From the IMG/VR virus record IMGVR_UViG_2565956717_000009, positions 1 through 37,482 of that record: a stretch of 37,482 nt of DNA; one strand, 5' to 3'. Under the pieces are notes generated by a model. That model was not told the origin of the DNA. It made no database searches and was given only the letters and a program-made list of their open reading frames with translations. How positions within the stretch are numbered: position 1 is the first letter of the stretch; every line of letters begins with the position of its first letter. The position numbers and the translations under genes were made by a program. Positions 1 to 10,385 of this stretch are shown here, piece by piece. Source of the stretch: a virus (Duplodnaviria; Heunggongvirae; Uroviricota; Caudoviricetes).

Positions 1-2946
1 TTAGTGCTTCCCTTCTATTAAGTCTAACCTAGCTTTTATTCTTTCTATTTCTCTGCGCTGCCATGCCGCCTCGATATAGAATAAGAGATCAGGTCTGACC
101 CCCCATCTAGATCCTGCTGGCGTTATTTCAACGCGCTCAATGATGTCTTCCATTACCATCACTGGATTATCATCCTCATCAACAATGATGCTCCCGTCAT
201 TATCAGTCAGCGGCATTTCCCTTTGGCCAGTAATGACGTCATCATATACTGCGGGATAATCGTCATAGCAAAGAAAGGCATAGCGGCATGTTGTGCTTTC
301 TTCTTCCATGAGTCCGTGAGAAATAAGAACATCACGAAGTTGCTGCGCGATTACACCATGATGTATCCTCGCCCCTTCTTCCCCCTTTATAGCGACAGCG
401 TTCAGCCATTTATAAGCGATATACCTGACGTCACCCCAGGCATCCAGCAATGCTTCGTCAGGAGAGACCGGCTCTGTCTTTAATGTTCCGTCACTGGTAA
501 CCACAGGATTGGAGCCAAGATAAACTGTCGAGAACCTGTTTCCCGGACCACCAAGAGCATTTACATTATCAAGATAAGGTTTAACATCTCCGTTCTCAAA
601 AAGATGTTCGAGTGCGTTATATACCGCGCGACGTGGAGTACTGCTTCCGGAACCATGCAACGTTATCATTGCACCATCTGCTGAAGACGTTGTTTCACCG
701 CCGCTAACGATTAATCTCTGAGCGGTAACATCATCAGACGGTACTTTCTTCGCAATAATGGCGTAATTACCCTCAAGTTTGACTTCCGCGCGAACTTGTC
801 CTGATGTACCTGCATGGACAGTCAGTGACTGGACGGCAACATCATCTGTGAAATCAACGGGTACAGGAACCGTCCTCACGCCTGACGTCGACATAAAAGT
901 AGGAAGCGTTCTGTTAGGAGTGGCTCCGTAGACAAAATCCCTTGAAACAAATTCTTCCTGTTTAATTTTCACCCTGAAACAATACAAATCAGCCGGGTGA
1001 CCATCGTGAACATAAGGATATTTTCTGTTGTTATCCCCTATGCTCCATGGGTTTAGAAAGTCTTCCCCACCGAAAATGTAGTACAGCCAGTTGTCTTTGA
1101 TACAAACTGAACCAACACCAACCGCAGAGTTAACTATTCCGCCCTGATAAATCTGATCAGTAACATTAACCCACTCTACATTATCCAGACTCCACTCATT
1201 GACGTTAACTCTGGTCATAAATGTTCTTGGATAATTTCCTGCATAACGGTTATCAGGTTCTCCTCCTTCCCACTCACCAAATGCGCGCTCACTGCCAAAA
1301 ATAATCAGCTCATCGCCAACTTTGGCAAAAGGAAAGTTTGAGTGATGAACATTATTTGGGAAGCGAAGAGAATTCCATGATGTACCTAAATCAGAGCTTC
1401 TGTGCAATGAACTACCGGGTTGAGTACTTAATGTCCCCCTGGTCGTCAGATACAGAATGCCATCATAATATTTTACACATGGCTCAGATGCATTCGCCTC
1501 ATATTCTGCAGGTATGCGTCTGCGAACAAAGCTACCAGGAGAACCGAAAGCATCAGAGAAATAGAGTATCCCAAGCTCGCGTGGACCAATATCACCATTA
1601 TGGTAGCCAACAGCAAAACTGTTATCGCTAATCGTCGCAAAACTGTGAATCTCAGTAACAGGAGTGCTTCCGTCAACAAAAGAAGGAATAGTTCCAAGAC
1701 TGGTTTTTCTCCATGGTGAAGAGTGAAATGATGTACCAAAACTCCAGTATCTACCCTCGTTATTCTGATCCACATCCTGGGTATTTTGCGTCGTAACTGT
1801 AAAAGTATTTTTATCAATAACAGTAGTCACCGTCATATTCCCGGTAACACCTGTAACACCAGAGTTTGAGAAGTTGACAAAATCACCAGCAAATAATCCG
1901 TGATCAGTAATGCGAATATAAGCGACTTGCTGATTTGCTGCTTTCGTTATACCACCATAAACGCGAAGGCTGCGACTCATTGGGCGATCCCACAACTCTG
2001 CAACCTGCAGTTTATTTCCGCTCACGGTCCGCGTCTCAATTACAGCAAAAAGGCGATTTCTGACAACCCCCATACACATGCAGTGATAGTTAACTGTGGG
2101 ATAGTTTTCATGTAAATCTGTAAGCCATTCCGGCGTTGTCCAGGTCTTCCCGTCATCTCCTGAGCGAACCCATGCAACATGGAGGTTATTTACACCATGG
2201 CGGTCTCCAGCCATAAAAGGCGCATAGATGACATTGTCATATACAAACGTTTTATCCTGCGTCCAGGCGTTGTACCACGGTGTATCTGTAATTTTAAATA
2301 ACTCTCCCTGGATAAAATCTTCAGAAGCATAAAAAAGAGGCTGACCCGGTATTCTCTCAAATAAAAAACGAGCATTTTTAAATCGACTGACATCTGGAAG
2401 AGTTGATACTTTAAAAGTAAGCCCTCGCCCATCTATCTTTTCACCACCTGTTGCAACAGAAAGTAATTCTGATAGAGCTGATGTATCATCATGAACACCA
2501 TCACCAATAGCCCCCCAACCTCTTACATCATAACTGTCTCTCCATCTTGCTATCTGAAGTTTTGGGTATTTATTCGCTCCATCTGGGTCTTCTAATTGCT
2601 GCCGTAACTGATCAGGATCATACTTCAGCACATTAGGAAAATAGAACTGCTGTGTACCATACGCATCATAAACAGCCATAGAATGGCCTTGCACGGTTAC
2701 GAATTTGGCAATCTGTCCGTTATATACCGGATATCCAGCAGCGTTAATCATTATTGGTTGCGAAACAGGAATGTGAGAACCGTCTTCGTTCTCTACATAA
2801 ACCTGAATCTGGTTTTCAGGATTTACCGGGTCAGTGTCAATTTTACCGATATAAATTTTGCCATTGGCTACGGCTTTAAAAGAACGCGCCATAGTGAAGA
2901 GTTGCGAAGGCATACTCACTACAACATTGGCTGTAATGTCTGTCAT
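1..2946 (-). CDS. Tailspike: P22 gp9-like head-binding N-domain + sialidase-fold (endosialidase-like) receptor domain + C-terminal intramolecular chaperone (peptidase S74-like)
   Basis: N-terminus [11 protein letters not shown]...[11 protein letters not shown]...LKYDPDQ matches recalled P22 gp9 head-binding domain; two Asp-box motifs ([16 protein letters not shown]); C-terminal ...[16 protein letters not shown]... resembles endosialidase/tail-fibre chaperone domain; 981 aa ORF. Confidence 0.88.
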
Positions 2947-3013
2947 TTAATTTGCTCCAGATACAAGGAATCGCCGCAGCATTGCCACAGTGATGCATTA
3001 TTAATCAAACAAA

Positions 3014-3028
3014 GAGACCGCTGTGGTC
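3014..3028. promoter_or_regulatory. Palindrome AGACC-GCTGT-GGTCT in tailspike/mnt divergent intergenic region; candidate operator
   Basis: Perfect 5-bp inverted arms with 5-nt spacer in the 146-bp divergent region; architecture loosely resembles recalled P22 Omnt. Binding protein not established. Confidence 0.25.
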
Positions 3029-3092
3029 TTATTGAGGATGCAACCAGCAGATAATAAGATGCCGATCCACTCACAAAAGCGAGGCATCAAGA

Positions 3093-3344
3093 ATGGGAAG
3101 AGATGACCCGCAATTTAATCTGCGGCTACCTTACGAATTAAAGGAAAAACTAAAACAGCGAGCCAAATCCAATGGCCGCTCTCTTAATTCAGAATTAGTT
3201 CAGATAGTGACTGATGCTGTATCAAAGCCATCCAAAATTTCAGGCTATCGAGACGATGCGGAACGCATCGCTGATGAGCAGTCAGAGCTTGTTAAGAAGA
3301 TGGTGTTTGATACGCTGAAGGATTTGTACAAAAAACCCACCTGA
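3093..3344 (+). CDS. mnt: Mnt-like ribbon-helix-helix repressor
   Basis: 83 aa; MGRDDPQFNLRLPYELKEKLKQRAKSNGRSLNSELVQIV...AERIADEQSELVKKMVFDTLKDLYKK closely matches recalled P22 Mnt; GAGG RBS 8 nt upstream. Confidence 0.8.
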   Translation: MGRDDPQFNLRLPYELKEKLKQRAKSNGRSLNSELVQIVTDAVSKPSKISGYRDDAERIADEQSELVKKMVFDTLKDLYKKPT

Positions 3345-3360
3345 AGGTGGGTTAATTTTT
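3331..3360 (+). terminator. Hairpin terminator at mnt 3' end (cccacc-tgaa-ggtggg + T-rich tail)
   Basis: 6-bp GC-rich stem at 3336-3341/3346-3351 flanked by A-run upstream and ttaattttt downstream; mnt stop codon lies in the loop. Confidence 0.55.
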
Positions 3361-3443
3361 GCATTTACCTGGGCCATATTGACTACTTATAAAATGAGAT
3401 CAATATTTAATCGCCCAATAACGGGTGTATGTTGAGGTATATC

Positions 3444-3623
3444 ATGGCGAAAAAACCAGGTGAAAACACAGGAAAAAACGGCGGAATATACCAAGAAGTT
3501 GGCCCACGCGGCGGTAAGAAAGACAATTTTGCAACCGTCAAGGACAACGAAAGGCTTCCACCAACAACAAAGCCAGGTCATGGCTGGGTATTGGATAAGC
3601 GAACTCCAGACAGCAAAAAGTAA
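3444..3623 (+). CDS. Small Gly/Lys-rich protein, YjzC-like (recollection)
   Basis: 59 aa from ATG 3444 with GAGGT RBS 5 nt upstream; KPGE..G.Y.EVG pattern; possible -35 TTGACT at about 3389. Confidence 0.5.
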   Translation: MAKKPGENTGKNGGIYQEVGPRGGKKDNFATVKDNERLPPTTKPGHGWVLDKRTPDSKK

Positions 3624-3628
3624 TAATC

Positions 3629-3651
3629 AAGCCGGGTCACTCCGGCTTTTT
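3629..3651. terminator. Bidirectional hairpin terminator between convergent genes
   Basis: aagccgg-gtcact-ccggctt followed by ttttt; sits between the 3' ends of 3444..3623 (+) and 3637..4002 (-). Confidence 0.55.
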
Positions 3652-4002
3652 GATATGTCGCTCGCAGAACTCAACAAGCCTGCTCATTAAGTAGCAGTAA
3701 GTCTCGTTGGCTCTTCCTGGTTCAACATCAACACCTACCCTTGAGCAGATATCGAATGCCATGTGAGCGCACTCATGGGCAATAGTAGATAGTTTGCCAT
3801 TGAACACGCCTATCACATGCAAAACACCATTCTCGCTACTCATTGTATGAGACGCTCCGTTGGCGTCCGAGTCATGCACGTCAACGCCAAGTTTTTGATG
3901 CAGGCGTTGCCATTCTGGAAAGTCTCTACAAAACACAATTGTACCGCTCTCAAAGAGCGGAACGAGCATCTTTGGTACTTTTCCAATGTTAACTTTTTTC
4001 AT
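3637..4002 (-). CDS. Small HExxH-motif protein (putative zinc metallopeptidase-like; ImmA/IrrE-like is a guess)
   Basis: 121 aa; HECAH at residues 76-80; AGGA upstream of ATG; A+T-rich coding sequence; no transmembrane segment evident. Confidence 0.5.
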   Translation of the reverse strand: MKKVNIGKVPKMLVPLFESGTIVFCRDFPEWQRLHQKLGVDVHDSDANGASHTMSSENGVLHVIGVFNGKLSTIAHECAHMAFDICSRVGVDVEPGRANETYCYLMSRLVEFCERHIKKPE

Positions 4003-4032
4003 GGTATCCTGCGTAAAACTAAGGAGGTTGGT

Positions 4033-4455
4033 GTGTTTGGTATATTAAAGAAAAGCAAGATAAAAAAATTAAGGGCAGAACTCGCCGAAACACAAAAACT
4101 GGCTTCACATTTTTACAAAATGAAATACGACGCTGAAGAGCGTGCATTCGTTGAGTTATGCGATTTATCTATTCGTATGGGAGTAGAGCCAGATGTAGCG
4201 GCAAAAACTCAACAAGGCATTGATATACTTGCAGATGTTGTTTTAAACAGGCAATATGCGTTTTATCTAAACGAGAAGGCCATTCAGATTTACTCGCAAA
4301 TCTTCCTCCTAGAAAAAAGAAGAGGAACTCACGATCGAGAAGAGTGGTTAAATGAAGTTGTTAAAAAATCTGGCTGGGAAGTTGTTTCATCAGAACTACC
4401 TCTTATTTGTGCTGATTTAATCGAAGAGGCAAAAGAGCGCCTATCCGATGGCTAG
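4033..4455 (+). CDS. Hypothetical alpha-helical protein, divergent from the HExxH gene
   Basis: GTG start at 4033 preceded by AGGAGG (4022-4027) at 5-nt spacing; in frame with ORF-track 3817..4455 but the long form has no RBS and overlaps the minus gene; 140 aa. Confidence 0.5.
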   Translation: MFGILKKSKIKKLRAELAETQKLASHFYKMKYDAEERAFVELCDLSIRMGVEPDVAAKTQQGIDILADVVLNRQYAFYLNEKAIQIYSQIFLLEKRRGTHDREEWLNEVVKKSGWEVVSSELPLICADLIEEAKERLSDG

Positions 4456-4458
4456 ACG

Positions 4459-4474
4459 AATCCATCCGTGGATT
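4459..4474. other. Hairpin (aatcca-tccg-tggatt) between convergent genes; no T-run
   Basis: 6-bp inverted repeat between the end of 4033..4455 and the gp16-like stop at 4480. Confidence 0.3.
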
Positions 4475-4479
4475 ACTAA

Positions 4480-6636
4480 TTACTCCTGTGCCATTCCGCT
4501 TAGCGATGCCACAATTCCAGCTCTTGCTAAACGCTGGAACTCTTCGTTTCCTAGTGCCTCGCGTATTGCCTTTACGGCGGCCTTATTTGCCATAAATCTG
4601 CGTTCCGCCGCCGCTAATGCACCATCACTTGCCCCAACCTTAACTGCCTTTGTTGCCTCTTGAACAGCCTTTTCAATAGCGTAACGACCACTGCGGGATG
4701 CAGCTAACTTTTCTATCGTCCCTTTAGCTATAGATCCAGAAACAGCCCCTACAACACCGCCAACAATCCCTCCACCAGTAGTACCAACAATAGCCCCTGA
4801 TGTTGAATTGCCTATTGCATTGAGAACTGTCATGACAGCTTTTGGCAGTCCTTGCTCAAGAGAGTTAATTGCCGGTATAGAGCGCCCCGTATGCTCTACA
4901 TATCGCAGTGGTCTGGTTGCTGCTCTGGCAAGGTCGCTGTATGCCCTAGCAATCTTACCCATTTCTGGCGAGTGCCTACTAATGGCAGTAATGTTCTGCG
5001 GCGTAAGGATCGACGCTATATGGAATACGCCAGCAGACTCTGATTTACCGCCACGCACCCCTTGCGATACCGCATCTTGTAATATTGATGCAATTGCAGG
5101 AGATCGCTCAGACTCTGGCAGCGCGCCAATAATCTGATGAAACTTTCCTGTCCCACTTTTTGATGAATTTTGCAAGGCTTTAATACCATCAGTGACTAAC
5201 TGATCAGTTGCAAGGTTTCTAAACGCTGCTTCAGCCTGTTCTTGTGCTGTAAATCTTGCTTTTGACAGATCATTAGCTTTTTGCCAGTCATCAAGAAAAC
5301 CGCCATTTTGAGCCATTATGCGCATATCTTCCGTTGCTGCATCACGAAGCTCCGCCATGCGCCTTGCCGTATTTGCCTCACCAGACCTTATATACTTCTG
5401 CTCAGCGTCAGCAAGTTTACTTCGCCATGCCTTCATGGCATCAAACGTGATTCCTTTTTTACCAGTTTTAGCATAAGCAGATGCAAATTGTTTCATCTCA
5501 GGAGTTAGCGGCATGCCAGCCAAAATATCACCCTGAATTGTAGCGTTCAGGTTTGACATTCTGGCCTTTGCGTCAGGCATCGTGGAGCGGACGCTATCCC
5601 ATGCTGCCTTTTCTGAGTTCTTCATTTTATCAATACTTGCTAAAACCCTTTGTTTTATGGCTGCACTTTTTTCTGATGCAGATCCAGCCTCAGCACCAAG
5701 TTCATCAAGTGCTGAGTGGAATTTCGACTGTATTTCACTAAAAGCCCTAGTATGTGCATCCTGAACAATTCCTGGTTCGGATGCCAATATCCCTTCGGCT
5801 TGTGCAATTCCACGACTTCCAGATCGCATTCCTGGTGTTAATGCGTTTATATCAATTCCAGCAGACTCAGCTGCTTTTGCTACATCTTCGGACACATTAG
5901 CGGCCTGACTGGCAATTGACTGACGCCCAGCACCTGACTTTGCCATCCTGGAAACATCATTAGCAGAATTCAGTGCTGCACCACCAAGAGCCTGTGAAAC
6001 CTTTGGCGCAATAACGCGCCCGACACCTGAAAGAACGCCTTGAGCACCAATATTGATACCACCGTTAATGGCAGCATTTTGTGCAAAATCACCCTCCTGA
6101 TTTGCAGCATCAGCAAGAGAACCGGCAATCATGTTTCCTGCGGAACCGATGTCTCCTGCGAGCTTTGCTGGCGCTCCAGCAGCTTTTGCCGCTGTGCCAA
6201 TTGGCAGGAGATACCCACCAATTGTTTCACCGGCTTGTGCGTAAGAGTCTGTCGGTCGATCGACTGGACGATAGACATCATCCAAAACCTTGGGGCCACC
6301 AAGCCCCTGGCTGATTGCATTAATCAGACTTGCGCCACCCTGCAATACGTCAAATGGTATGTTTACCAGACCACGACCAGCCTGTTCTGCAATTTGCCCT
6401 GCACTTTGACCACCAGTGAGCCAATCGCCAGCTTGTTGCATCAATGATGGTTCTTCTTTCTGCTGCTGAGGCGGATGGTATGCTGCATAAAACTGATCTC
6501 TTGCTTCAGCCCATTTGTCACCAGCCTTAGGGGCAACAACCTCATCAAAATATTGCGCTTGAGCCTGTGCTTTCTGTTCTTCAGTTAACGCCTGATACTG
6601 TGGAGAGGCGATAACATCTTTCCATGCTTTAGCCAT
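4480..6636 (-). CDS. Ejection (DNA transfer) protein, P22 gp16-like
   Basis: 718 aa, Ala/Gly/Gln-rich; position and order 7-20-16 immediately upstream of the immI region as in P22. Confidence 0.7.
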
Positions 6637-7985
6637 TAATCACCCCATAAAGACGAGAAACCGGACTTATTGCTGTCGCTTCCTGATTTTCGCTCACTAA
6701 CATATGTGTCATAACCTGATGAACTATATCCCATTGATTCAGCCTCCCTTGCTGCAACCTTTTGAAATACAGAATATTGCGATCGGATTTCAGATAACTG
6801 TTTTCTGACGACCTCTTCAGGCTGTGTTATATCGAGTTTCGCGATAAGGTTTTCCAGTTTTTGTCCTTCAGCATTGGAGAGGCTACCCATACCTCGCATA
6901 GTCTGCACGTTCTGGACAAACGCACCCGACTTTAATTCTTCTATCGCATTACGGTTTGCAAGCCCTTCAGCACTTGTGAAGCCATCTATATTTCTTCCTT
7001 CGAAGCGACCGATACCTTCAAGCTCCTTCTTACCAAGCAAAGAATCTATTTTCTCTATCCCTCGCTCACCAGTAATCAACGCATTGTTGTAATTATTGTT
7101 GCCATCAAGCCATCTCTTAGCCTGAGACATTCTGGCTGACGTTGCAGCTTTACCGGTTAGCGGATCAATTCCCGTCGCTGCTATCTGTGAGTTAAGAGAC
7201 AAAACATCCATATCCTGAAGTTGTCCTGCTCTTTCAAGGGCCGCCTGTGACTGCTTAAACACATACTTGTCGTGATTCAGTCTTGCCATTTGAGCCTTAT
7301 AGGAAAGATCCTGCCCCCTAATAGCCCTCGCATTCGTCATGTCATTATTGCGAATGGTTTCGTTAATTCTTTGCTGCTCCTGCTGGCGACCAACCATCTT
7401 GTCCTGAACAGCAAACGCCTTTTCTGGTCCAAGCGCACCGAGAGACATAGTAGTCAGCATGTGTGATAGCTGCTCTGGATTCTGGATACCTGTCTGAATC
7501 ATCCAGTCAGCATTAGCACCAACGCGATTTAACCTGTCCTTGTTGTCAGTAATGAATTTACTGTAGGCTTCCGGTCCCTGAGAAAGAGCGACGTTAGCCC
7601 TCATGGCTAAATCGCCCATATCGTTGCGTTGCTGATCATTAAGACCTGAAAACGCCTGTTGTGCCTGTGCAACAAACGCTGGATTTTCCTGGGCAAACTT
7701 AAATAGTCCCGATGGATCACCAGAAGCCCATGCATCAGCATGAACCTTATTGAACGCACTAATCGCTTTCTGTTGCTGTTCCTGCTTATAAATATCAGCA
7801 ACTCCAGCCAGACCACGTAACGCGGTCAGACCAACGTTATTTGCACCTGAGCGAGCCAGTTCATTGTTTTCGCGGATCAGACCAAGCGTTGCGTTAATGT
7901 CGCTTGCCTTTGGCGCATTCTCATTTTGCGCACCGATGCCAGCAAGAAACCCACCAGAATTAATACCCTGTTGCCACGTAGCCAT
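6636..7985 (-). CDS. Ejection protein, P22 gp20-like
   Basis: 449 aa; ATGA overlap with downstream gene; conserved order. Confidence 0.7.
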
Positions 7986-7995
7986 TGATTACCCC

Positions 7996-8688
7996 TTAAA
8001 ACAACGAGCCAAGCAGACCAAGACCAGCACCGATACCAGCACCCCACGGAGTTGATAGCTCGAGAGCACTGGCTATGCCACCACCCAAAAGTGCACCGGA
8101 TGCAGCACCACTAACCCCCTGCTGCAATGCTGACGGTCGGTTGGCGTTTGCCGCAGCCAGCGCCGCGCTTTGCTGTGAAATCTGACTCATGTTGTTGGCA
8201 TATGTCTGCCCGGCGTTTGCCTGTCCCTGAAGAGCGCCAAGACCGATATTTGCCAGGTTGTTGTAATTGTTCATTTGTCCAGATAGCCATTGCTGACCAA
8301 GCGTTGGTGCGATTGTTGCTAACTGATTACTGGTTGCGGTGGAACCCAATCCACCTGTTGCTTCCGCTGCCGCCAGACTCTGATAGCGAGCCTGACCAGC
8401 AAGATCTTTGTACTGCTGAGAGTTGTAATACTGGTTAAGTGCCTGACCTTGCCCCTCCAGAGACGATAAGTTCTCGAGGCTGCCGACATACTTCTCAGCC
8501 AGAGGAGTAAACGGTTTCAGGTTGTTCATGATGGTGTTGAACTGCTGATTTTGCAGGTCTGCGGCATACTTCTGAGCTTCTGCTGCATACTTTGCGCTTT
8601 TATCAGAACTGCCACCTTTCCCGCCTTTTTCAGGGCAATAAGGTTCCTCGCCGCGCAGTTTTCTGCCCAGCTTAAATGCATATAACAT
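7996..8688 (-). CDS. Ejection protein, P22 gp7-like
   Basis: 230 aa (recalled P22 gp7 is about 229 aa); Gln/Ala-rich; conserved position. Confidence 0.7.
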   Translation of the reverse strand: MLYAFKLGRKLRGEEPYCPEKGGKGGSSDKSAKYAAEAQKYAADLQNQQFNTIMNNLKPFTPLAEKYVGSLENLSSLEGQGQALNQYYNSQQYKDLAGQARYQSLAAAEATGGLGSTATSNQLATIAPTLGQQWLSGQMNNYNNLANIGLGALQGQANAGQTYANNMSQISQQSAALAAANANRPSALQQGVSGAASGALLGGGIASALELSTPWGAGIGAGLGLLGSLF

Positions 8689-9146: not shown

Positions 9147-9847
9147 CAGTCAATCAGCCCATGTAATCTAAGTGCCGTTTCAAGCGCCAGAATACGCTGC
9201 CGCGCCTGCTGCAAACCTGTAGCGAGGGCTGCGACTTCGGATTGTGTGTACGTAGTGCCGACTGTGTATGACTGGTTAGCGTTGAATGAGCCAAGAAGAG
9301 GTGTACCTGTGGCTGCAGTCCATCCGGTATTTCTTGCTCCAACAACCTGAATTCCATCAACTGAATATGATGTTTTTACATCCAGCGGTGACTCAAGAGA
9401 CTGCAATTCGGTTACGGTTTTCGATACGTAATCACTCTTAATGCCAGAGACATCGTTTTCTACCTCATCCAGTCTTTGGTCAACAGTGACCAGATGCGCC
9501 TGAATATCGATAACCTCATCCAGCAAGTAATCAACATCGCTACGCAGTACGACTATCTTCCCTTCGGCAGTTGTTAACCTGACCTCAAGTAGATTTATCG
9601 CTTTTGTGTTTGCGGTGATTCTTGCGTCGTGATCAGCCAGTTCGACATCCTGTTCATCGTTTTTTACCTGGGCATCGTAAGCGCCCTGACCAGCCTGATT
9701 TGCCTTCCCGGCAATTGCGCCGACATCAGCCCCCTGATTAATGACATACAGCAGGTAAGACTGGCTGAATATATTGCGTGGAAGGATTGATGTATCGAGT
9801 CGTGTAGCCTGGATGATTACCGGCACATTGAGATTCGAATCAGCCAT
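9146..9847 (-). CDS. Tail needle protein, P22 gp26-like
   Basis: [25 protein letters not shown]... and C-terminus ...[45 protein letters not shown] match recalled gp26; start at internal ATG 9847 with GGAGG 7 nt upstream. Confidence 0.85.
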
Positions 9848-10385
9848 TAACATGCCTCCACGATTTACCAGACTGGATATTGTGAATCACCGTCTGACTG
9901 ACACAGTATTTTTTAGCAAGCTCTCTTTGATTAACTCCCTTTGATTTCTTTATTTCTATTACTTGCTCATATGATAGCTTTGAAATTGGATTATTTTCTC
10001 CTTTTAAAGCCGGAAACTTCACCCTGCCTTGAGATGAGCAATGCTTCATATTCTCCTTTTGAGTACACCACTCTAAATTAGAAGCATTATTATTTTTTCG
10101 GTTGTTATCTATGTGATTTATGAACGGCTTGCCTTCTGGATTGGGGACGAAAGCAAGAGCGACAAGCCTATGCACAAGCCATTTTACTTTAACTCCATCA
10201 ACACTAAGTGGCAAATATAGATAACCTTTATTATTCTCGTGTTGTTTTAGCCACCGCCCCTTTCTGAGTTGCGTGCTGCCATGCGCAGCTTTAACAACAC
10301 GTGAGTGAGAATATACTCGCCCATCCTCTGTTACGGCATATAAACCTTCATATCCAGGAATATCTTTTGCGTTTTCACTCAACAT
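9840..10385 (-). CDS. HNH homing endonuclease (NUMOD4-like N-motif + HNH + C-terminal HTH)
   Basis: [18 protein letters not shown] (NUMOD4-like), [12 protein letters not shown]...[24 protein letters not shown] (HNH), C-terminal [22 protein letters not shown]; strong AAGGAG RBS; A+T-rich. Confidence 0.85.

Follow-up and report, generated by a model that had tools for sequence, protein, structure and literature searches.

Small genes between gene 16 and the tailspike gene of a P22-like phage or prophage: a predicted minimal zincin, a moron, and a rare sieA-slot cassette

Does the short interval between gene 16 and the tailspike gene of a P22-like phage hold one cargo cluster, or several units that stand side by side? 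We examined this for IMG/VR record IMGVR_UViG_2565956717_000009, a P22-like (Lederbergvirus-type) prophage or phage that was analyzed over its whole 37,482 nt, hereafter the window. Four small genes separate its tailspike from gene 16, namely mnt, orf59a, hkcC, and orf140 (Table 1). An original prediction, made without database searches, had grouped the last three as an A+T-rich cargo cluster in the position where P22 carries sieA. We consider it probable that the interval is instead a local version of a known, fast-changing region, the “ant moron”, in which three units have been inherited and swapped separately. It is not a new system; it is a new combination inside a described variable region, a reading that draws on the observed gene content, homologies, joints, conservation, and co-occurrence.

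The name ant moron denotes the interval from gene 16 to gene 9 (Villafane et al. 2008, PMC2629481), and ten types of it were counted in sixteen genomes in that work. Both orf59a and hkcC were named in 2000-2001, with no function assigned, and lie within the ant moron. The three positions carry the names HkcD (orf59a), hkcC, and hkcB in HK620; in the P22-pbi annotation the 59-aa gene is orf59a, followed by the mnt terminator, and sieA starts at the equivalent of window position 4033. By megablast, positions 3246-4039 are 97% identical to P22. P22-like phages have mnt, orf59a, and hkcC in common with the window at 92-97% nucleotide identity, and the ant moron or immI regions of P22, HK620, ST64T/ST160, and CUS-3 are alike in their place between gene 16 and the tailspike gene. 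The mnt-only immI layout of ST160 and SE1 matches the window, and CUS-3-like and UMNK88 prophages share its third gene, orf140. The window differs from known ant morons in joining an ST160-like mnt-orf59a-hkcC block to a UMNK88-type orf140 and gene 16 and to a CUS-3-type endosialidase tailspike, a gene combination not found in 5426 complete Escherichia coli genomes or in 50,697 phage records.

Much of the original description holds. The coordinates of the 59-aa open reading frame (ORF), of the 121-aa ORF with its HECAH motif, and of the 140-aa ORF with a GTG start were all borne out; the starts of hkcC (ATG, 4002) and orf140 (GTG, 4033) diverge at a distance of 30 nt, as had been estimated; and the hairpins said to insulate the genes are present after mnt and between orf59a and hkcC, with a weak third one after orf140. 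The genes are indeed accessory, having no known virion or regulatory role (PMC2629481). What changes is the grouping. Only orf140 occupies the sieA position, using the same GTG as sieA, since orf59a and hkcC are also in P22 at 97% identity. A+T-richness, too, is a property of orf140 only (GC 0.385, the second percentile of 420-nt windows), with orf59a at the window mean of 0.469 and hkcC close to it at 0.459. In place of one cargo cluster we find three separately exchanged units.

HkcC, a predicted minimal zincin

The HECAH sequence occupies HkcC residues 76-80, within a predicted helix. The protein is 98% identical to HK620 HkcC and to the product of a P22 ORF that is unannotated in the reference records BK000583 and NC_002371, and it matches phrog_1365 (E=2e-39). 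Close relatives are restricted to Enterobacterales. A profile search of 1.84 billion representatives returned 517 clusters (formed at 50% identity) with E<=0.001, and among the 150 matches listed almost all are stand-alone proteins of roughly 60-190 residues. In 84 relatives that are 22-44% identical to the window protein, the invariant columns are only four: H76, E77, H80, and E100.

The AlphaFold2 (AF2) model of HkcC has a mean predicted local distance difference test score (pLDDT) of 88.8 and a predicted template modeling score (pTM) of 0.84. Its elements run in the order strands 11-13 and 21-25, helix 28-37, strands 49-56 and 59-66, helix 71-88 bearing HExxH, and helix 100-117, which is opened by E100, 20 residues after H80. 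In the zincin core, HEXXH lies on the first C-terminal helix and a Glu on the second, and this Glu and the two His bind zinc (Iyer et al. 2017, PMC5512222). The predicted topology of HkcC matches this published core. H76, H80, and E100 would then bind zinc and E77 would act as the general base. The suggestion that the HExxH protein is a zincin thus gains from both the four invariant residues and the modeled fold, and HkcC is very probably a minimal zincin-type metallopeptidase. From alignment and model together we conclude that it is a member of a widespread, uncharacterized family of small phage zincin-like proteins, for which catalysis is predicted.

Comparison with named families gave partial answers. 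Of the profiles that the original prediction had proposed for searching, ImmA/IrrE found no match in the window protein, and the SprT-like Pfam family was weakly matched by 13 of the 84 relatives (best E=1e-4). A PDB sequence profile returned eight weak matches, all of them metzincins (E>=0.03) and aligned on a strand and the HExxH helix, and HkcC has no significant match to any solved zincin structure in the PDB. In BFVD, a database of predicted viral structures, 26 entries match at E<=1e-3 with TM-scores up to 0.83; their sources are phages of Pseudomonas, Ralstonia, Erwinia, and Eggerthella, crAss-like viruses, and others. The only named matches in the BFVD table, which extends to E 3e-3, are SprT-like, Metalloprotease, and PolyVal Metallopeptidase (E 4e-5 to 3e-3). 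The third zinc ligand of SprT and Wss1 is a His, not a Glu such as E100 of HkcC. With the SprT-like family PF10263 and the metallopeptidase (MPTase) domain of polyvalent proteins (PMC5512222), HkcC shares the HExxH helix and the Glu on the next helix, placed behind a small beta-sheet with an N-terminal helix. The polyvalent-phage-protein MPTase is a domain of a large protein, whereas HkcC stands alone at ~120 aa.

The missing match to a solved zincin would also suit a protein that is not an enzyme, its HExxH being a structural or metal-binding remnant, but across 84 diverse sequences the four residues that never vary are precisely the catalytic and ligand ones, which argues for catalysis. Alternatively, HkcC could be an anti-repressor protease like ImmA/IrrE, with Mnt or a different repressor as its target. 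Its gene does lie in the immunity region close to mnt, and one of the 84 relatives touches Peptidase_M78 (E=0.099). That profile is essentially negative, however: the window HkcC does not match ImmA/IrrE PF06114, and Mnt, the nearest regulator, with orf59a in between, is a ribbon-helix-helix (RHH) protein and not of the XRE type. Relatives of HkcC are moreover encoded far from repressor genes, beside tape-measure genes or between lysis and terminase genes. We judge both alternatives, the remnant and the anti-repressor protease, to be unlikely, and favor a catalytic zincin.

As for its expression, no conserved promoter was seen upstream of hkcC, where the sequence is that of whichever cassette fills the sieA slot. 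Late transcripts traverse the ant moron and enter the tailspike gene (PMC2629481). Given that hkcC shares its strand with the late operon and lacks a conserved promoter, late read-through is the simplest inference, and hkcC is probably translated from a read-through transcript that continues to the tailspike gene.

The window holds no second copy of hkcC or of orf59a. HkcC-like HExxH proteins also form a second, paralogous clade (about 39-43% identity), encoded close to lysis, terminase, or portal genes of lambdoid and P22-like genomes and including epsilon34 gene 70, phage L Orf129, ST64T orf-129, and ST104 ORF47 (H105-H113; L102-L106, L109). Some phages (ST160, UAB_Phi20, and Phi75) have both copies, and the window has hkcC only.

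orf59a and its linkage to hkcC

The product of orf59a is 98% identical to that of P22 orf59a and matches phrog_3202 (E=7e-31). It had been described as YjzC-like. Taken strictly, that label fails, the match to Pfam YjzC (PF14168) reaching 19.4 bits against a gathering threshold of 25 (E=0.0013). The match spans 46 of 55 model positions, and orf59a resembles YjzC, a family of small proteins from Firmicutes and the phages of these bacteria, in length and in its Gly-rich “GGIY.E.G” and “PPT” patterns. A profile of orf59a homologues also matches an ORF overlapping a RefSeq “YjzC family protein” of Clostridium phage phiCT9441A (2.8e-7; tblastn E=4e-4). Remote homology to YjzC is therefore likely from these comparisons.

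The promoter-like motif noted earlier in front of the 59-aa gene was found again, as the one match of a motif scan in which 3.1 were expected, so that a single match is not significant alone. Its position is conserved in unrelated contexts: the -35 and -10 hexamers and their spacing are kept in P22, Xenorhabdus, Rosenbergiella, and other prophages, with differing spacers and flanks. A terminator hairpin follows orf59a in all eight diverse loci compared; in the window it is the hairpin common to the convergent orf59a and hkcC, annotated t-mnt in P22-pbi and tORF59A in HK620. Because its T-run is on the + strand only, this hairpin should stop orf59a and mnt transcripts and be weak against late transcripts.

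The gene thus has the outline of a classical moron, with a predicted sigma-70 promoter of its own, a 59-aa basic YjzC-like product, and a terminator; antisense to the late operon, it would probably be expressed from the prophage. It is replaced in 11 of 80 P22-like loci and found within other operons. Since the promoter footprint and terminator are kept in unrelated contexts, and since the gene occurs without hkcC in lysis regions, we take orf59a to be an autonomous moron (as defined in a quotation in PMC2629481) with a predicted promoter. Just 3′ of the -10 (window 3408-3430), a motif TCGCCCAATA(A/T)CGG is conserved in otherwise unrelated contexts. This partial repeat of the CAATAT in the -10 region could serve as an operator or leader element.

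In 69 of the 80 P22-like IMG/VR loci, orf59a and hkcC form a convergent pair, 12-37 nt apart around the hairpin. The pair recurs between the tail-chaperone region and the tape-measure gene of five siphovirus-type prophages (Klebsiella, Rosenbergiella, and three more assemblies), as well as in Xenorhabdus, Proteus, a Pasteurellaceae genome, and metagenome contigs, with HkcC identity down to 44%. How far the two genes have diverged is correlated (r = 0.83; 21 non-independent pairs). All this would be expected if hkcC and orf59a were a functional two-gene module moving as a unit, a late zincin with a small basic substrate, inhibitor, or antidote made from the prophage. We regard such a module as doubtful. 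Tight linkage alone would produce the same correlation, and in the 11 exceptional loci hkcC remains 98-99% identical but orf59a has given way to an ORF for a membrane protein of ~74 aa (hand translation). The three loci retrieved with orf59a as query all lack hkcC, and the two with ORFs read (L116 and L118) lie in lysis regions. Relatives of hkcC (39-48% identity) without orf59a occur in Kluyvera, Citrobacter, and Atlantibacter, where they lie close to genes for lysis, terminase, or portal; in Moraxella, where a head-morphogenesis gene precedes; and in Mixta. Obligate coupling of the two genes, once a candidate, was downgraded in view of the hkcC-less orf59a loci and the 11 replacements.

The loci in which another sequence replaces orf59a, about 260 nt 3′ of hkcC, are L021, L023, L061, L065, L067, L069, L078, L083, L084, L090, and L098. 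The hand-translated ~74-aa ORF of that sequence would encode a two-pass membrane protein, and the joint lies at the last orf59a codons, beside the shared hairpin; the position of orf59a is therefore a second swap slot. In two metagenome contigs (L013, 1330-1968; L014, 1229-1867) the hkcC-orf59a pair adjoins a gene for a 212-aa PhageMetallopep (PF18894) protein, a second gene of zincin type.

The sieA slot, its linker, and orf140

The third unit is set apart by a short conserved linker. It comprises a candidate extended -10, TGGTATCCT (4002-4010), the ribosome-binding site (RBS) AAGGAGG (4022-4028), and the GTG start. When the window, P22, HK620, and ST160 are aligned, they are identical through the RBS, the GTG, and two to three further codons, and unrelated beyond. 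In CUS-3-like loci orf140 is preceded by the same ~37 nt, from TGGTATCCTGC to the GTG, and homology between UMNK88 and the window likewise starts at 4002. The span from TGGTATCCTGC to AAAACTAAGGAGGTTGGTGTG is retained in L001-L003, L004-L012, and about 60 IMG/VR loci regardless of the left neighbor, be it hkcC, a P63C gene, or, judging by where homology begins, a Panacea-domain gene.

Among 70 linker-bearing loci, 11 unrelated protein families follow the GTG: SieA, HkcB, the ST160 type, and eight more. An N-terminal hydrophobic segment (membrane anchor or signal peptide) is found in 10 of the 11, orf140 being the exception. Pfam searches of the other slot cassettes gave only a YobH-like match for one, plus coiled-coil noise. 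The linker has the look of a recombination joint, one that brings with it a candidate extended -10, an RBS, and a start codon, and it would act as a portable expression platform, its promoter role being predicted from the motif.

By its joints, orf140 is a separate cassette, 4002-4471, in the sieA slot. It is present in 30 of the 5426 complete E. coli genomes, the backbone 3345-4039 in 167, and the two together in none. Patchy presence and sharp joints are what mark it as a moron. Its left neighbor varies: the divergent gene in CUS-3-like prophages encodes a 322-aa P63C-domain protein, and in the UMNK88 prophage the closest upstream gene is a Panacea-domain gene. To its right stand two gene 16 types, mutually only 21% identical, and homology between the window and CUS-3-like loci is limited to the cassette itself. 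Among 5.8 billion proteins, orf140 forms three near-identical clusters, the sole source-named one being from E. coli. It found no match in the 50,697 phage records, in PHROGs, or in PADLOC, and Pfam (DUF6435, E=0.016, residues 1-26) and NCBIfam (E=0.21) yielded nothing beyond sub-threshold noise. Two alleles differ at 19-20 synonymous and 6-8 non-synonymous sites, and because this corresponds to a ratio of non-synonymous to synonymous polymorphism (pN/pS) of 0.09-0.11, orf140 is to be read as a real gene.

The 140-aa product had been called helical, and its single-sequence AF2 model agrees, showing helices only, of which 2-49 and 60-95 form a long hairpin (pLDDT 76). It has no transmembrane segment; the maximum 19-residue hydropathy is 0.75, versus 2.60 for P22 SieA. 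SieA and orf140 both lie between the gene 16 and gene 9 homologues, occupy the same slot, start from a common RBS and GTG, and run antisense to the late operon, but show no similarity in sequence. SieA spans the inner membrane several times and bears the motif FxRYPxEAxxFNK (Leavitt et al. 2024, PMC10883804); its hydrophobic segments and the motif are both missing from orf140. Being soluble, unlike nearly all slot occupants, the orf140 product therefore cannot act like the inner-membrane SieA. The gene would be a rare cassette plugged into the sieA slot through the linker that also serves SieA, HkcB, and eight or more further unrelated proteins. Judged from where it lies and which way it faces, its product is probably a prophage-expressed accessory protein, possibly with a role in exclusion or defense.

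The divergent starts of hkcC and orf140, 30 nt apart, together with the protease-like character of HkcC, had suggested a protease/partner or toxin/regulator module. That this pair is such a module, and the three genes one cargo cluster, we now hold to be very improbable. The two genes do not co-occur outside the window, hkcC being adjacent in none of the 30 orf140-bearing E. coli genomes; elsewhere orf140 stands beside P63C or Panacea-domain genes, and hkcC is paired with at least 10 other cassettes, including SieA and HkcB. The 30-nt spacing is a property of the linker common to all slot cassettes. Nor does PADLOC, Pfam, or NCBIfam match any of the three proteins to toxin-antitoxin, defense, or ImmA/IrrE profiles. 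Because hkcC is never beside orf140 elsewhere, the pairing is unsupported, and we return to three units with separate histories.

Some points weigh against this account. The hkcC-orf59a linkage is much commoner than would be expected of independent high-flux units, and includes joint transfer into siphovirus-type prophages, so that a description as three independent units may understate a functional tie between the two. The window HkcC matches no Pfam or NCBIfam family and stays below every curated threshold. Late expression of hkcC, like prophage expression of orf59a and orf140, is proposed from orientation and published knowledge of P22, and expression timing, zinc binding, catalysis, and biological roles are inferred throughout. 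For orf140, a role is suggested by slot position only, with no homologues outside E. coli and a single-sequence model of moderate confidence. A more far-reaching scheme is that HkcC cleaves or neutralizes Orf59a, the pair moving between podovirus-type and siphovirus-type late operons, and that the linker platform makes the slot an exclusion/defense hot spot, of which orf140 would be the first occupant that is soluble and works by another mechanism; we put this forward as a speculation that is unlikely to hold.

Borders, mosaic layout, and meaning

The features of the interval and its borders are collected in Table 1. On the left, mnt is present without arc or ant, the orphan state that had been described, and lies only 146 nt from the tailspike start. 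The mnt gene adjoins the tailspike gene in ST160 and SE1 as in the window, a layout described for ST64T/ST104 (PMC2629481). No sar RNA was found, Rfam giving only sub-threshold terminator-like matches over 2700-4800, as is expected because arc and ant are missing. A scan for terminator-like sites gave 10, against 1.9 expected. The HK620 annotation has a “tMNT” terminator, called a mnt remnant, shortly upstream of HkcD, a possible counterpart of the hairpin after mnt.

Table 1. Features of the gene 16-tailspike interval and its borders, in window coordinates
Feature	Position	Strand	Description
Tailspike gene	1-2946	-	981 aa
mnt	3093-3344	+	Arc/Mnt-type ribbon-helix-helix repressor (Pfam Arc E=2.8e-22, Repressor_Mnt E=2.2e-18); left border
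Hairpin after mnt	3334-3353		Bidirectional terminator-like; T-runs both sides; 8-bp stem, 5 GC pairs; -13.2 kcal/mol
orf59a promoter-like motif	3379-3407	+	TTGACT-17-AATATT; motif scan
orf59a (HK620 HkcD)	3444-3623	+	59 aa, pI 10.4, Gly/Pro-rich; antisense to late operon
Hairpin common to convergent orf59a and hkcC	3629-3648		-12.6 kcal/mol; T-run only on + strand
hkcC	3637-4002	-	121 aa, predicted minimal zincin-like metallopeptidase; same strand as late operon (gene 16 to gene 9)
Linker	4002-4039	+	Conserved, ~37 nt; left recombination joint of sieA slot; candidate extended -10, RBS, GTG, next two codons
orf140	4033-4455	+	140 aa, GTG start; soluble acidic all-helical orphan protein; sieA slot
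Weak hairpin between convergent orf140 and gene 16 stop codons	4459-4474		AATCCA-TCCG-TGGATT; -5.2 kcal/mol
Gene 16 homologue	4480-6636	-	718-aa ejection protein; right border
Ejection-protein genes 16, 20, 7	4480-8688	-	

On the right, the gene 16 protein is 99% identical to that of the UMNK88 prophage, 85% to HK620 gp16, and 70% over 155 aa to P22 gp16; identity falls to 21% for gp16 of the CUS-3-like prophages that have the same orf140. The tailspike (981 aa) is 99.4% identical to that of CUS-3-like prophages, whose Pfam domains are the P22 head-binding domain, those of an endosialidase (End_N_terminal, beta-propeller, beta-barrel, and End_tail_spike), and the Peptidase_S74 chaperone. Because of this match to an endosialidase tailspike, the phage probably targets the K1 polysialic acid capsule. 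Since the tailspike is of CUS-3 type but the neighboring gene 16 is of HK620/UMNK88 type, the window is, by its homologies, a three-way mosaic of these two and the ST160-like block.

Related arrangements were seen elsewhere. In the CUS-3-like ant morons of L009 and L011 (4111-4895), an Arc/FitA-like RHH gene is immediately followed by a gene for a 178-aa ClpP-family protease and then by the P63C gene, and in a siphovirus-type prophage (L112) hkcC and orf59a stand together with antirepressor, Arc, and P63C genes beside the tape-measure gene. Ant-moron genes are therefore common to podovirus-type and siphovirus-type late operons. Among the window's genes for virion assembly, a 181-aa ORF (9840-10385, - strand) is 56% identical to an ORF of L009 with NUMOD4 and HNH_3 domains and probably represents a homing HNH endonuclease that has entered the morphogenesis operon.

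Three elements of this analysis were not found in the literature searched: the assignment of HkcC to the zincins, together with how large its family is; the frequent joint movement of hkcC and orf59a from one phage type to another; and the existence of a conserved linker that has at least 11 unrelated cassettes exchanged behind it. P22 is among the best-studied phages, yet hkcC and orf59a have been without a proposed function for 25 years. There is now a testable assignment for HkcC as a minimal zinc metallopeptidase, in a family whose clusters number more than 500 and occur in many phage groups. The “three-gene cluster” becomes a juxtaposition of separately mobile units in a variable region already described. 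The conserved linker accounts for the sampling of unrelated genes by the sieA slot, and marks the slot as a place where new exclusion or defense proteins might be mined, with orf140 as an unusual, soluble candidate.

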